Below, one piece after another: positions 13,501 to 16,978 of a stretch of DNA of 64,000 bases. The notes under the pieces were generated by a model. That model worked only from the letters and a program-made list of their open reading frames with translations. It ran no database searches and was not told the origin of the DNA. The stretch comes from a virus (Duplodnaviria > Heunggongvirae > Uroviricota > Caudoviricetes), in IMG/VR virus record IMGVR_UViG_3300009008_000023, positions 1-64,000 of that record; one strand, written 5' to 3'. A program made the position numbers and the translations under genes. Position 1 is the stretch's first letter; each line of letters begins with the position of its first letter.

Positions 13501-14553
13501 ATGGCAACCAATGTAGGAGTAATCATTGGCCGATTTCAGGTTGATGATCTACACCCGGCTCACAGAGCCATTATTGATGAAGTGAAGGACAAACACTCAC
13601 AGATCCTCGTGTTCTTGGGGTGTCCGGCAACATATCTCAGTCAGCGTAACCCTCTGGATTTCTCTACGAGACGTCGTATGATTCAGAGTCATTATCCTGA
13701 TGTGGATGTCTTCCAGATTAAAGACCACAAGCTCGATAGTATCTGGTACCAGGAGCTTGACCGTCGTATTCGAGAGATTGAACCGCATGCTGAAATTACG
13801 TTGTACGGCGGGCGTGATTCTTTTGCTGACTACTATGATGGAGCATTCCCGGTTGAAGTTCTCACAGATATCGAGAACTCTTTCTCTGGCACTGAAATAC
13901 GTGAAAGAGTTGGAAATACTCCTCTCTCAACTCCTGACTTTCGTGCTGGCGTGATCTATGCTATTGCTAATCGTTTTCCTCTTACCCACTTAACAGTCGA
14001 TATAGGGCTAATAAACCCATATCACTCGTCCCCTACAAAGAACTCAAGAATTCTGCTAGGTAGAAAAGAAGGTGATAGGCAGTGGTGTTTCCCAGGCGGG
14101 TTTGTCGATGCAAAAGACGCATCACTCGAAGACGCTACAAGGCGTGAACTCTTTGAAGAGACTGGGTGTCACACTAGCAGTGTGCAAATGTGTAAGTATG
14201 TAGCAAGCTTGGAAGTTGTGAATGATTGGCGCTACAAGAATGAGGTTGATCGTATCATGACGAATGTGTTCCTAATGGAACTTCCACCTAATTCACCTTA
14301 TCTTAAGAACAATGATCAAGGCGAAGAAGGTACAGGCTTACTATCAGAAAATAAACTAAAAGCCAGTGATGATCTTGCAGAAATTCAATGGTTTGATTTG
14401 AAAGAATTTAGCGAGACTCCACATCATTTTGTTACTAATGATCTCATTACAAAGGCTCATCAGCCAATCATGCAAGTCTTTATCGCACATCTCAAAGACA
14501 ACGAGCTCTACGGGCTCGCCAACGATAAACCTAAACCACAGGATTGTGATTAA
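13501..14553 (+). CDS. natV: bifunctional NMN adenylyltransferase / Nudix hydrolase (NadM/NatV-like)
   Basis: N-terminal GRFQ(V/P)xHxxH cytidylyltransferase HxGH-type motif; C-terminal Nudix box GGFVDAKDASLEDATRRELFEETG; strong RBS AAGGAG. Confidence 0.85.
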   Translation: MATNVGVIIGRFQVDDLHPAHRAIIDEVKDKHSQILVFLGCPATYLSQRNPLDFSTRRRMIQSHYPDVDVFQIKDHKLDSIWYQELDRRIREIEPHAEITLYGGRDSFADYYDGAFPVEVLTDIENSFSGTEIRERVGNTPLSTPDFRAGVIYAIANRFPLTHLTVDIGLINPYHSSPTKNSRILLGRKEGDRQWCFPGGFVDAKDASLEDATRRELFEETGCHTSSVQMCKYVASLEVVNDWRYKNEVDRIMTNVFLMELPPNSPYLKNNDQGEEGTGLLSENKLKASDDLAEIQWFDLKEFSETPHHFVTNDLITKAHQPIMQVFIAHLKDNELYGLANDKPKPQDCD

Positions 14554-14997
14554 TGGACCAGTTAAATGATAACCTAGCTGTCATGACCGACAGCTACAAA
14601 GCAGGACATTTTCGTCAGTACCCTGCCGGTACGACGTCAATTATGTCTTATTTTGAATCCCGTGGAGGTTTACCTTACACGGTGTTCTTTGGTCTCCAGT
14701 ACATCATCAAAAAGCACCTTCTTGGTCGGGTGATGACTCAGAAGAAGCTCACTGCAGCACAAATTTTTTGGAACGAGCACTTTGGCGATAATCAGCCTTG
14801 TGGTGAAGATATATTCAATCATAAGGGTTGGCAGCACATCATCGATAATCATGATGGGCATCTGCCTATTCGCATCCGAGCGGTCCCTGAAGGGACTAAG
14901 GTACCTTCATCAAACGCCCTCATTACAGTAGAGAATACTGATCCTGAGTGCTTCTGGCTTACCAATTGGTTGGAAACGTTGTTAGTACAAGTATGGT
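14553..14997 (+). CDS. nadV: nicotinamide phosphoribosyltransferase (NadV/NAMPT), exon 1
   Basis: MTDSYKAGHFRQYP...DGHLPIRIRAVPEG...TDPECFWLTNWLETLLVQVW matches the NAMPT N-terminal region; ends at T14997 before in-frame TAG. Confidence 0.8.
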
Positions 14998-16022
14998 AGA
15001 AATGCCCTTTATGGTGGTAACACCATATCGAAACTTCTCTAATTGCTGGGATATCCTAATTATAGGACGATCAGCAGCGAAGCCTAATCTAATTAGTTCT
15101 TGCATTAGTAAGTATTATTTGTTATATTTACTATAGTTACTAACTAATTAGGAGTTTTTTTATGATAGGAAAACAATTTGGAAACGATCTTGTTATAGAT
15201 AGAAAAGTTGAACAAAGATCATATGGTAAATTAACCCTTTACCTTGTTGAGTGCCAAAAATGTAGCAACAAAAAATGGGTTCAAAAATCCGCCCTAGTTA
15301 ATGGAAATATAAAGTGTAGAGTAGGTATATGTAACAGACAAGTACCTGATTTCACTAATCAAATATTTCATTATTGGACTGCTTTAGAATATGTAAAAGA
15401 TAAAAAATCACGTGGATGGTTATGGAAGTGTAAGTGTAAATGCGGGAATGTGGGATATGTCCGCACTCATACATTACAATCTGGACAATCAAAGTCTTGT
15501 GGTTGTTATATGAAAGAACAACTGTCTCAACGTCAAACACTTACTGACTATATAGGACCAAAACGTGAAATTTATAGAAATTACAATAGAGCCTCTAATA
15601 AGAGAAATTATGAATTTTTATTAACTGAAGAACAATTTTTTGAACTCATTGAACAGCCATGTTTTTACTGTGGAATAGAAAAGTCAATGGTTTTTTATCG
15701 ACAAAACTATAGATACAATGGTGTTGATAGAGTAGACAATTCTATAGGATACACCATAAATAACACAGTGTCATGTTGTAAAAATTGTAATAACTCTAAA
15801 AGTACACTATCTCAACAAGAATGGTTTAATTGGCTTAAACAAGTTTATACCTATCAGAAAGCTCAAGGAACGTTCAACGACTAGTCGAAAGACGTACACC
15901 CAAGTGGGTGGAAATGGGAAGGCTCCTATTAGTTTAGGAGTTTGATATAGTCTGATCTACATAGTAATATGTAGCAGCTCACAAGAGCGGGCTGAGATTA
16001 ACGACCTCAGTTAAACACAATG
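14998..16022 (+). mobile_element. group I intron (1025 nt) interrupting nadV, carrying an HNH homing endonuclease ORF
   Basis: Joining T14997 to A16023 restores the frame and the conserved NAMPT motif VQ(V/S)W-YP(T/I)T(I/V)ATNS; 5' exon ends in U, intron ends in G. Confidence 0.7.
15162..15884 (+). CDS. intron-encoded HNH homing endonuclease
   Basis: C-terminal GVDRVDNSIGYTINNTVSCCKNCNNSK HNH motif; own RBS; AT-rich codon usage. Confidence 0.8.
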   Translation: MIGKQFGNDLVIDRKVEQRSYGKLTLYLVECQKCSNKKWVQKSALVNGNIKCRVGICNRQVPDFTNQIFHYWTALEYVKDKKSRGWLWKCKCKCGNVGYVRTHTLQSGQSKSCGCYMKEQLSQRQTLTDYIGPKREIYRNYNRASNKRNYEFLLTEEQFFELIEQPCFYCGIEKSMVFYRQNYRYNGVDRVDNSIGYTINNTVSCCKNCNNSKSTLSQQEWFNWLKQVYTYQKAQGTFND

Positions 16023-16978
16023 ATCCTACTACAATCGCCACCAATAGCCATATGGCAAGAACTAACATTAACCAGTATCTTGAAGATACTGGTGACCCCA
16101 CACTCATTGACTTCAAGCTTCACGACTTCGGTTACAGGGGAGTATCATGTGATGAGCAGGCCGGCATTGGTGGAATGGCTCACCTCACCTCCTTCATGGG
16201 TACTGATACTGTTAAAGGTATCATAACCGCGCAACAGTATTACAATGCACAGATGTGTGGATTTTCCATTCCGGCCAGCGAACACTCAACCATGACTTCA
16301 TGGGGGAAGGATCATGAGCTTGATGCTTTCCGTAACATGCTCGATCAACATCCCACAGGACTAGTTGCATGTGTGAGTGATTCATTTGACATCTATCATG
16401 CATGTGAACAGTACTGGGGCACTGATCTTAAAGATCAAATCCTCGGAAGAGACGGCACTCTTGTCGTCCGTCCTGACTCTGGTGACCCCATCGAAGTAAC
16501 AGAGAAAGTGTTTGAAATTCTCTGGAAACAGTTTGGTGGAACCACCAATGAGAAGGGATACCGTGTTCTTGATCCCCACATCCGCATGATTCAGGGCGAC
16601 GGCATAGACTTAAATATGCTGGCTATGATTCTTGCCAACTTTAAGGACAAGATGATTTCGGCTGATAACATCGCGTTTGGGTCTGGTGGGGGACTTCTCC
16701 AGCAGTTCAATCGTGATACTGGTCGCTTTGCTTTCAAGTGCTGTCACGCTATTATCAATGGCGAAAGCCGCGACATTTTTAAAAGCCCTATTGCGGGTAG
16801 TAAGCCTTCGAAGAAGGGTTATCTCACTCTACAGAAGAATGATGGTGGCGCGTTCGAGACCATCAATGATAGGGTATTACACTACTCTGATGAAAACTTA
16901 CTTGAGCCGGTTTATGAGAATGGCGTCCTTTTAAAGGATCAAACATTCGCTGAAATAAAAGCTCGTATCTTGGTATAA
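16023..16978 (+). CDS. nadV: nicotinamide phosphoribosyltransferase (NadV/NAMPT), exon 2
   Basis: YPTTIATNSH...KLHDFGYRGVS...GSGGGLLQ... collinear with NAMPT central and C-terminal regions. Confidence 0.8.

Follow-up and report, generated by a model that had tools for sequence, protein, structure and literature searches.

In a large uncultured phage, the nadV gene for the NAD-salvage enzyme nicotinamide phosphoribosyltransferase (NAMPT) is interrupted, with a probability that we put at about 93%, by a mobile group I intron 1025 nt long. The intron is assigned to the IA2 type, the phage family that includes the T4/RB3 nrdB, td and nrdD introns. The gene lies in a window of 64,000 nucleotides (positions 1 to 64,000 of IMG/VR record IMGVR_UViG_3300009008_000023), and the features discussed below are collected in Table 1. 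It is textbook knowledge that phage genes for nucleotide metabolism and replication harbour mobile group I introns that carry endonuclease genes. No earlier report of a group I intron in nadV or NAMPT was found in the literature searched, which is not proof of absence. The present case would thus add nadV/NAMPT as a host gene for a known kind of mobile element, while the understanding of how such elements work is left unchanged.

Table 1. Coordinates of the interrupted nadV gene, its intron and the neighbouring gene, as positions in the window
Feature	Position	Strand	Remarks
NMN adenylyltransferase-like + Nudix fusion, 350 aa	13501..14553	+	Pfam CTP_transf_like 4e-5, NUDIX 1.9e-13
nadV exon 1	14553..14997	+	148 codons and first base of Tyr codon; Pfam NAMPT_N 3e-33
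P1	14995..15006	+	exon GGU (14995-14997) pairs with internal guide GCC (15004-15006)
Group I intron, subgroup IA2-like	14998..16022	+	1025 nt, 33% GC, after U14997, ends G16022
5' half of ribozyme core	15010..15085	+	Rfam half-hit 14985-15169, 17.1 bits; covariation
P2	15010-15016/15021-15027	+	GUAA loop
P3 5' strand	15034-15039	+	
P4	15044-15049/15071-15076	+	
P5	15054-15058/15063-15067	+	
P6 5' strand	15083-15085	+	
Stable hairpin, start of loop L6	15089..15151	+	3' arm AACUAAUUAG runs into endonuclease Shine-Dalgarno
Ribosome-binding site AGGAG of intron ORF	15150..15154	+	7 nt before ATG 15162
Intron endonuclease gene (putative), 240 aa	15162..15884	+	in loop L6
3' half of ribozyme core	15866..16022	+	Rfam half-hit 15760-15974, 25.6 bits, E 0.0012
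P6 3' strand	15866-15868	+	
P7	15879-15883/15948-15952	+	
P7.1	15884-15886/15891-15893	+	GUC-GAAA-GAC, GAAA loop
P7.2	15897-15901/15906-15910	+	CACCC-AAGU-GGGUG
P3 3' strand	15916-15921	+	
P8	15923-15928/15935-15940	+	
P9	15958-15963/15968-15973	+	GUAA loop
P9.1	15977-15980/15985-15988	+	
P9.2	15990-15996/16006-16012	+	
nadV exon 2	16023..16978	+	AT of Tyr codon, 317 codons and stop; Pfam NAPRTase 3.4e-56

The anatomy of the region is readily described. The three open reading frames of the first-pass annotation were found exactly where it had placed them. The first (14553-14999, 148 aa) ends in ...LETLLVQVW followed by TAG, and the last (16052-16978, 308 aa) is preceded by a frame that is open 5' of its ATG and reads ...VKHNDPTTIATNSH. 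The apparent stop codon at 14997-14999 consists of the last exon base and the first two intron bases. Joining T14997 to A16023, as had been proposed, yields a 1401-nt gene for a protein of 466 aa reading ...LLVQVW-Y-PTTIATNSHMART, and the alignment that had been suggested as a check matches human NAMPT (...ILVQSWYPITVATNS) with an E value of 1.3e-150 and no gap across the junction. Residues 7-462 of the spliced protein align to human NAMPT structures, and everything expected of a NAMPT/NadV family member is present, namely the NAMPT_N and NAPRTase domains and similarity over the full length to characterised NAMPT. The excised segment (14998-16022) follows a U, ends in G and has the length originally assigned to it. 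Among 295 joins tested, comprising those that are in-frame, stop-free and within about 20-50 nt of both ends, 14997/16023 is the sole one that restores W-Y-P with a U at position -1 and a terminal intron G (slashes in sequences mark the junction here and below). The insertion site lies inside the Tyr codon of the conserved block W-Y-P-(I/T)-T-(V/I)-A-T-N-S. The full-length spliced protein is missing from a collection of 5.8 billion proteins, which says little since that collection derives mostly from DNA assemblies. Read-through of the amber codon at 14997 was considered and rejected: a TAA lies seven codons beyond it, so that read-through cannot rescue nadV despite a phage-encoded tRNA with a CUA anticodon.

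The RNA between the exons accommodates every helix of subgroup IA2, from P1 to P9.2 and including P7.1 and P7.2, the hairpins between P7 and the 3' strand of P3 that are a hallmark of subgroup IA in the classification of Michel and Westhof. Pairing is complete in all 13 helices of the nadV intron, of the RB3 intron and of the intron in a second nadV gene (contig L019, see below). Covariation supports the core helices P3-P9, with the P3/P7 pseudoknot among them. Across 8 introns and 66 pairs, 87.1% of the cells are paired versus 38-44% in slid controls, and both sides have changed in 42 of the 66 pairs; none of 500 shuffles scored as high. For the 4 closest introns the paired fraction rises to 91.9%, and in P7 a U-A pair has been replaced by C-G in compensation; compensatory changes are likewise seen in P7.1 and P7.2 of relatives. 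At the sequence level, the 3' core matches the T-even nrdB/I-TevIII intron in BLASTN (74% over 155 nt, E 4e-17) as well as 721 phage records in which group I introns are annotated. Homology of the core to phage introns, covariation of its helices and restoration of the reading frame all bear out the initial reading of the insertion as a group I intron.

A genuinely split nadV offers another way to read the three ORFs. In such an arrangement, a free-standing endonuclease cassette would lie between two cistrons, whose half-proteins assemble without any splicing. Aeromonas phage Aeh1 reportedly has an nrdA split by mobE into two half-proteins of this kind. ATG 16052 is indeed the start used by gene callers, and in one homologue (L016, protein P0259) this Tyr codon is simply replaced by an in-frame TAA, with an ATG 11 codons on and no intron. 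Nevertheless, a split gene is very improbable here. No Shine-Dalgarno sequence precedes ATG 16052, translation from it would forfeit the conserved YPTTIATNSH block, and the frame upstream is open exactly to the junction, where the split Tyr codon is restored. Furthermore, the sequences on either side of the ORF form a group I core with covarying helices, for which a plain endonuclease-gene insertion would have no need.

Scoring with Rfam model RF00028, which the first-pass annotation had put forward as a check, stays below the family threshold. There are two half-hits, one on each side of the ORF, with 25.6 and 17.1 bits against a gathering score of 50, because the ORF in loop L6 splits the model. 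The established RB3 nrdB intron, used as a control, scores only 31 bits, so that this threshold, at which RF00028 misses both introns, is not informative where an intron bears an ORF. With the same model, 80-103 bits are reached by ORF-less relatives. Examples, at 82-103 bits, occur in Vibrio phage D181, Staphylococcus phage IME1318_01 (autolysin gene) and Pseudomonas phage Pa_WF01 (RNA polymerase gene); they share the core of the nadV intron but have no ORF in L6, reside in other host genes and carry different P9 extensions. The D181 intron is 94% identical to the nadV intron over the 51 nt from J6/7 to P7.2.

The T-even nrdB intron (RB3, I-TevIII; IA2) provides a detailed precedent. It shares helices P1-P9.2, P7.1/P7.2 included, and likewise caps P2 and P9 with GNRA loops; its whole core is about 70% identical, and J6/7, P7 and J8/7 are identical in the two introns. 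The RB3 ORF is also located in L6, has its own ribosome-binding site and runs into J6/7-P7, and both ORFs end in ...FND before the stop codon. In contrast, P1 of RB3 nrdB is GCGU/GCGC (its two strands), where the nadV intron has GGU/GCC at the same place; the guide therefore co-varies with the host exon, with GCC adapted to nadV. The two encoded proteins differ altogether: I-TevIII is a canonical HNH enzyme, and a relationship to it did not hold up, since no similarity to the nadV-intron protein is detectable (BLASTP E > 30). In T4, the ORF of the nrdB intron is defective.

If it behaves like its self-splicing homologue in nrdB, the nadV pre-mRNA would fold into P1-P9.2. P7 would bind an exogenous guanosine, which would then attack after U14997, the base that forms a wobble pair with G15004 in P1 at the 5' splice site, and the freed 3'-OH of exon 1 would in turn attack after the terminal G16022. 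Ligation of the exons would give ...UGG-U/AU-CCU..., encoding the 466-aa NAMPT.

The protein encoded in L6 is a putative homing endonuclease of the His-Me finger (HNH) superfamily. As had been noted, its gene possesses its own ribosome-binding site, and the last 19 nt of the gene double as the P6 3' strand, J6/7 and the P7 5' strand, such that its UAG stop codon (15882-15884) falls in P7/P7.1. The hairpin at the start of L6 is stable (-23.6 kcal/mol, z = -3.67, a value reached by 0 of 200 shuffles) and could possibly control translation of the gene, for instance by limiting it on the precursor RNA through its overlap with the ribosome-binding site. A scan of 13300-17400 for sigma-70 promoters and terminators gave counts not above those of shuffles. 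The N-terminal half of the protein contains two Cys-rich CxCxCG...SCGC modules, and a PacI-like nuclease domain of the His-Me finger type makes up its C-terminal part, at about residues 135-218. No match was obtained in Pfam even at E 10 or in NCBIfam even at E 1. PHROG 374 and 1035 (HNH endonuclease, endonuclease VII) are matched at 1.4e-19 and 3e-18, and a profile of 48 homologues matches PacI (E 1.4e-8) and the HNH protein 4h9d (E 4.4e-5) in the PDB. A search returned 370 homologues of this endonuclease; several hundred are present in metagenomes.

Invariant in the 48 homologues are C167, C170, D189, R190, N201, C206, C209, N210 and K213, which include the zinc-binding CxxC...CxxC pair (C167, C170, C206 and C209) and two asparagines of the metal site (N201 and N210). 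The catalytic His of canonical enzymes, the first H of H-N-H, is absent; the motif reads GVDRVDN around the invariant D189-R190. The annotation of the product as an HNH endonuclease is consequently correct at the level of the superfamily (His-Me finger) only, the protein being PacI-like without the catalytic His. In PacI, a conserved Tyr has been proposed to stand in for this residue (PMC5714182), and Y197 occupies the corresponding position here. PacI (PDB 3LDY/3M7K, His-Me finger group 20) has the motif CxxCG...GVDRxDxxxGY...N...C.xCNxxKS in common with the intron protein (PMC5714182), and in both, two Cys pairs are available to bind zinc, the catalytic His is missing and the omega-loop carries a conserved Tyr. 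PacI itself is a restriction enzyme, small and dimeric, whose N-terminus is HTH-like, whereas the nadV-intron endonuclease has the two Cys-rich N-terminal modules and is intron-encoded. With neither a canonical HNH His nor a Pfam match, its nuclease activity is suggested by the resemblance to PacI. In a co-infection, the enzyme would cut an intron-less nadV near the insertion site, and repair would copy the intron in (homing). It would represent a natural PacI-like nuclease that probably recognises a long target, which may be guessed from the sequence of the intron-less allele.

Several relatives place the insertion in context. The same 2426 nt recur, identical, in L010 and L011, two further assemblies made independently (from JGI 3300009128 and SRR8062321), with the proteins on 3-6 contigs of at most 116 kb. 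Identity in independent assemblies argues that the arrangement is not an assembly artefact. That an assembler joined an unrelated intron and endonuclease-gene fragment into nadV might be suspected from the metagenomic source and from the GC content of the intron (33% versus 45% in the exons), but it is hardly credible for an identical stretch of this kind inserted with single-nucleotide precision. Mobile introns are, besides, usually lower in GC.

An intron-less nadV with 77% amino acid identity and the same Nmnat-nadV gene order (P0001/L007) has in its DNA, uninterrupted, the sequence expected from ligation, GTTTGGT/ATCCTACTACAATCGCCAC, with 23 identical nt across the junction. Conversely, the nadV gene of contig L019 (SRR24035590), which is 51% identical and has 59% GC, contains a 1046-nt intron of the same family at the identical site (TGG T/AT CC). 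The two ribozyme cores are 68% identical, P6 of L019 has 6 bp, and the L019 ORF lies in the same loop and encodes a homologous endonuclease (37% identity over full length, E 6e-54). A compensatory change in P7 of L019 removes the UAG, as a result of which its ORF reads 19 codons further. At least two distant nadV lineages therefore have an intron at the conserved T/AT position in the W-Y-P block. This shared site, together with the existence of intron-less and apparently ORF-less alleles, is indirect evidence for homing. In two closer relatives (P0013 and P0017, 89% and 85% identity), the ORFs start in the homologous 3' end of an intron (MSGLELT..VEHN/DPTTIATNS), and an exon-1 ORF (P0242) ends in ...LLVQVW, as does nadV exon 1. 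Gene-call coordinates and translated intron ends thus point to an apparently ORF-less version of the intron, about 246 nt long, in a close relative. A search of viral and metagenome contigs with the spliced protein returned no further loci, and a degenerate pattern spanning the intron end and exon 2 had no match in either set.

Homing elements commonly decay once fixed, in what is known as the Goddard-Burt cycle, and the nadV insertion could be a group I intron by descent that splices poorly or whose endonuclease is dead, leaving nadV a pseudogene or weakly expressed. The apparent ORF-less allele would fit such a history, as would the short helices of the intron: P1 has 3 bp (perhaps one more past a mismatch), P6 has 3 bp and P10 at most 2 bp. 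Yet decay seems unlikely, given that the core helices and joining segments are intact (with J6/7, P7 and J8/7 as in the nrdB intron), that the exons contain no stops or frameshifts and conserve the NAMPT residues, that the endonuclease retains all 13 family-invariant residues and that the sequence is the same in three assemblies. A functional mobile intron remains the preferred reading.

The host gene lends the intron a particular setting. The stop codon of the NMN adenylyltransferase-Nudix gene overlaps the nadV ATG, and a Nmnat(-Nudix) gene directly upstream of nadV constitutes a NARP2-type NAD+ salvage pair. NARP2, described in Vibrio phage KVP40, is the NAD+ reconstitution pathway 2 composed of Nampt and Nmnat (bioRxiv 10.1101/2024.02.11.579819). 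A NARP2 pathway is also expected to counteract defence systems that deplete NAD+. The two activities occur together in KVP40 and are likewise adjacent here; unlike in KVP40, expression of Nampt would here need RNA splicing. No phage NadV in the INPHARED collection reaches 60% identity to the spliced NAMPT. Since the interrupted gene encodes the Nampt of an anti-defence operon of the NARP2 kind, splicing could conceivably gate NAD+ reconstitution during infection. The more far-reaching proposals that the endonuclease (PacI-like, Tyr for His) represents a biochemically uncharacterised homing class and, separately, that NAD+ reconstitution is gated by GTP-dependent splicing are speculative, and we consider them improbable.

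On a practical level, this nadV comes out of gene calling as two 'partial' proteins, with the consequence that phages of this kind will be miscounted or misjudged in surveys of NAD+ salvage or NARP2 anti-defence genes that do not model introns. Short ORFs with NAMPT_N only, tried as a census of interrupted nadV genes, proved mostly irrelevant. Those of the P0254 type (ending in ...SREIKKILV), for example, belong not to an interrupted phage nadV but to a low-GC, eukaryote-like gene with GT...AG mini-introns of roughly 50 nt and frame changes.

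Both the observation of an interrupted nadV and its interpretation as a group I intron with a homing-endonuclease ORF are supported, and from the sequence we infer that the intron is spliced. The three ORFs described in the first-pass annotation were found at the coordinates claimed for them (see table), and the frame upstream of the ATG at 16052 is indeed free of stops, translating as ...VKHNDPTTIATNSH. Joining T14997 to A16023 excises 1025 nt and creates a 1401-nt ORF of 466 aa, whose product aligns with human NAMPT structures over residues 7-462 (E 1.3e-150). This alignment is ungapped at the junction (nwletllvqvwypttiatns / nwietilvqswypitvatns), bearing out the proposal that the joined exons recreate a conserved NAMPT block. 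The predicted ligated exons read ...CAAGTATGGT|ATCCTACTAC..., and an intron-less form of the site would read GTACAAGTATGGTATCCTACTACAATCGCC. Among 295 in-frame, stop-free joins enumerated around both ends, only two restore W-Y-P, and of these 14997|16023 alone has the U at -1 and the intron-terminal G that had been ascribed to the element. The GC content of the intron is 33%, compared to 45% for the exons. The same 2426 nt occur, identical, in two other assemblies (JGI 3300009128 and SRR8062321), and the locus is therefore not an assembly artefact.

Coordinates of the nadV reading frames and ribozyme elements in the window
Feature	Position	Strand	Detail
nadV 5' ORF	14553-14999	+	148 aa, C-terminal LETLLVQVW, then TAG; Pfam NAMPT_N 3e-33
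ORF between nadV pieces	15162-15884	+	240 aa
nadV 3' ORF	16052-16978	+	308 aa; Pfam NAPRTase 3.4e-56
P1	14995-97 / 15004-06		U.G wobble at splice site
P2	15010-16 / 15021-27		GUAA loop
P3	15034-39 / 15916-21		
P4	15044-49 / 15071-76		
P5	15054-58 / 15063-67		
P6	15083-85 / 15866-68		
P7	15879-83 / 15948-52		
P7.1	15884-86 / 15891-93		
P7.2	15897-901 / 15906-10		
P8	15923-28 / 15935-40		
P9	15958-63 / 15968-73		
P9.1	15977-80 / 15985-88		
P9.2	15990-96 / 16006-12		
Intron-terminal G	16022		

A split nadV, its two polypeptides translated separately, is an unlikely explanation of this arrangement: no RBS precedes 16052, the products would lack ten conserved residues, the join restores a Tyr codon exactly, and the flanks of the intervening ORF form a covarying ribozyme. 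Read-through of the amber codon was also considered as a rescue of nadV and rejected; despite a phage tRNA-CUA it would be of no help, because a TAA comes seven codons after the TAG.

Related alleles supply genetic evidence of their own. The closest full-length homologue in a collection of 5.8 billion proteins (P0001, 77% identity) is uninterrupted. Its contig shares the gene order Nmnat-Nudix / nadV with the window and reads ...GTTTGGT|ATCCTACTACAATCGCCAC..., with a run of 23 nt across the junction that matches the predicted ligated exons exactly. Gene calls on two contigs from JGI 3300072015 give 331-aa ORFs for two closer relatives, P0013 (89%) and P0017 (85%); in these, residues 1-13, MSGLELT[TP/IS]VEHN, are the translated 3' end of a homologous intron (SGLRLTTSVKHN in the window), with DPTTIATNSH next. 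On the P0017 contig, the exon-1 ORF (P0242, 157 aa, 80% identical) has the C-terminus ...LLVQVW, and only ~205 nt separate its end from the next ORF. Given this spacing, and assuming the same junction, the gene-call coordinates point to an ORF-less nadV intron of ~246 nt, to which the window intron minus its insert in loop L6 (245 nt) is a nearly exact match. A divergent nadV on metagenomic contig L019 (51% identical, 59% GC) is interrupted at exactly the same T|AT position by an intron of 1046 nt, which has the same helices as the window intron and a homologous ORF in the same loop (37% full-length identity, E 6e-54). Intron-less, ORF-less and ORF-bearing states, observed or deduced from such gene calls, form the pattern expected of a homing element; among the close relatives, vertical descent with loss may be an alternative to homing.

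Two other NAMPT genes came to light in these comparisons. A high-GC, phage-like nadV homologue (L016 4424-4462; GCA_040384165.1, JAWVHB010005614.1) carries a plain in-frame TAA at the intron-hosting Tyr codon (...GTG TGG TAA CCC TGC ACC...) and no intervening sequence; a nonsense mutation, a sequencing error and programmed read-through are all conceivable causes. The other NAMPT gene, low in GC (32%) and widespread (L017/L018 4001-5655; 83 blocks of the contig collection), consists of four ORF pieces separated by ~50-100-nt GT...AG insertions with frame changes, which resemble the spliceosomal mini-introns of eukaryotes and have no relation to the group I intron.

That the intervening sequence is a group I intron is upheld by its homology to nrdB introns and its covarying core, as well as by the intron-less allele. 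By BLASTN, window 15865-16020 shares 74% identity with the nrdB introns of T-even phages (E 4e-17). The 162-nt 3' part of the intron finds matches in 721 phage records, at loci annotated, among other things, as nrdB/I-TevIII, thymidylate synthase, nrdA, terminase, DNA polymerase and 'Intron_gpI'. Identity to the RB3 nrdB intron is ~70% across the core, and a Vibrio phage D181 intron that lacks an ORF is 94% identical over 51 nt (J6/7 to P7.2). The Infernal search proposed with the first-pass annotation gave a mixed result: RF00028 matches stand either side of the endonuclease ORF (14985-15169, 17.1 bits; 15760-15974, 25.6 bits, E 0.0012 in a 3.5-kb search), but both are below the gathering score of 50 bits. 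The control, the RB3 nrdB intron, is the classical I-TevIII intron, and its ORF likewise lies in L6; it scores just 31 bits, so the gathering threshold fails for this architecture; ORF-less related introns score 80-103 bits.

Helices were assigned by comparison with related phage introns, and every one listed pairs fully through Watson-Crick or G.U pairs. Because P7.1 and P7.2 are present, the intron belongs to subgroup IA. Relative to RB3 nrdB, the P1 guide and the host exon have changed together (GGU/GCC vs GCGU/GCGC). In an alignment of eight introns with ORF-bearing loops trimmed, the 66 pairs are paired in 87.1% of cells, compared to 38-44% in controls with slid 3' partners; both sides have changed in 42/66, and none of 500 shuffles reaches any observed measure. 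Among the four closest introns, the paired fraction of cells is 91.9%, and 26 pairs have changed on both sides. The intron may nonetheless have decayed and no longer splice, against which stand the intactness of all core elements and of both exons.

The endonuclease ORF is embedded in this ribozyme. It has its own RBS, as had been claimed (AGGAG, 7 nt 5' of the ATG), and its final 19 nt double as the P6 3' strand, J6/7 and the P7 5' strand, with the UAG stop within P7/P7.1. A conserved J6/7-P7 segment, GUUCAACGACUAG, is shared by window 15861-15884 and RB3 nrdB intron locus 977-1000, and its UAG is the stop of both ORFs. The window endonuclease and the unrelated I-TevIII thus both end FND* because the conserved RNA is read in the same frame. 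In L019, a compensatory U-A to C-G change in P7 turns this UAG into CAG, and the ORF is therefore 19 codons longer.

The 240-aa product has no match in Pfam or NCBIfam. It does match PHROG HNH endonuclease and endonuclease VII families (1.4e-19 and 3e-18), and 370 homologues were found at E <= 1e-5. A profile of 48 homologues matches PacI (E 1.4e-8) and HNH endonuclease 4h9d (E 4.4e-5) over residues ~135-218, where the invariant or nearly invariant residues form the motif C167-x2-C170-G ... G-V-D189-R190-V-D-N-x-x-G-Y197 ... N201 ... C-C206-x2-C209-N210-x2-K213. The label 'HNH' therefore holds at the superfamily level and is wrong at the motif level, since the canonical catalytic His is missing, as it is in PacI. 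According to the His-Me finger classification that puts PacI in group 20 (PMC5714182), an omega-loop Tyr fills the role of this His. While this kind of element is very well known, a PacI-like endonuclease is somewhat unusual. The N-terminal half holds a pair of Cys-rich modules (consensus WxCxCxCG...SCGC) that presumably bind DNA in a zinc-dependent manner.

Translational occlusion is known for T4 intron ORFs. At the start of L6, a stable hairpin (15089-15151, -23.6 kcal/mol, z = -3.67) adjoins the Shine-Dalgarno sequence with its 3' arm, and a weak AU-rich stem spans the AUG, an arrangement that resembles the T4 case and may serve similar control. A promoter and terminator scan was uninformative as to separate transcription of the endonuclease gene.

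A literature search found no report of a nadV intron. In the INPHARED phage collection, no phage is close to the window at the DNA level, and all phage NadV proteins are <60% identical. Together, Nmnat-Nudix and Nampt match NARP2, a pathway that restores NAD+ in the face of defences that deplete it (bioRxiv 10.1101/2024.02.11.579819).

The remaining gene content is phage-like. It includes a sigma-70-like factor (19101-20012) and a single 2019-aa ORF (55236-61298, -) encoding a fused multisubunit-type RNA polymerase with beta (Rpb2 domains 3, 6) and beta' (Rpb1 domains 1-3, 5) parts. Twenty-two tRNA genes span 20 kb (33764-54301, +) with small ORFs interspersed, among them an anticodon-CUA amber suppressor (34629-34706; tRNA-Pyl by ARAGORN, Rfam tRNA 58.6 bits). 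About 2.5 kb upstream of this array, a full-length match to GOLLD RNA (RF02032; 30754-31238, +; 81.3 bits vs a gathering score of 150, E 1.8e-19, model 1-416) probably marks a large non-coding RNA that is GOLLD-like but divergent. A Hatchet ribozyme match (25287-25359, +; 30.7 bits vs 51, E 0.042) is probably due to chance. An RtcB-type RNA ligase (23438-24739, +) and a second RNA ligase (43919-44965, +) alongside the large tRNA set suggest a capacity for tRNA repair. Finally, a short, 343-aa adenylosuccinate synthetase (47620-48651, +; Pfam 1.2e-73 in two stretches) has a 2-amino-adenine pathway enzyme as its best PHROG (1.3e-58); it is probably PurZ-like, and a modified (Z) genome is therefore possible.
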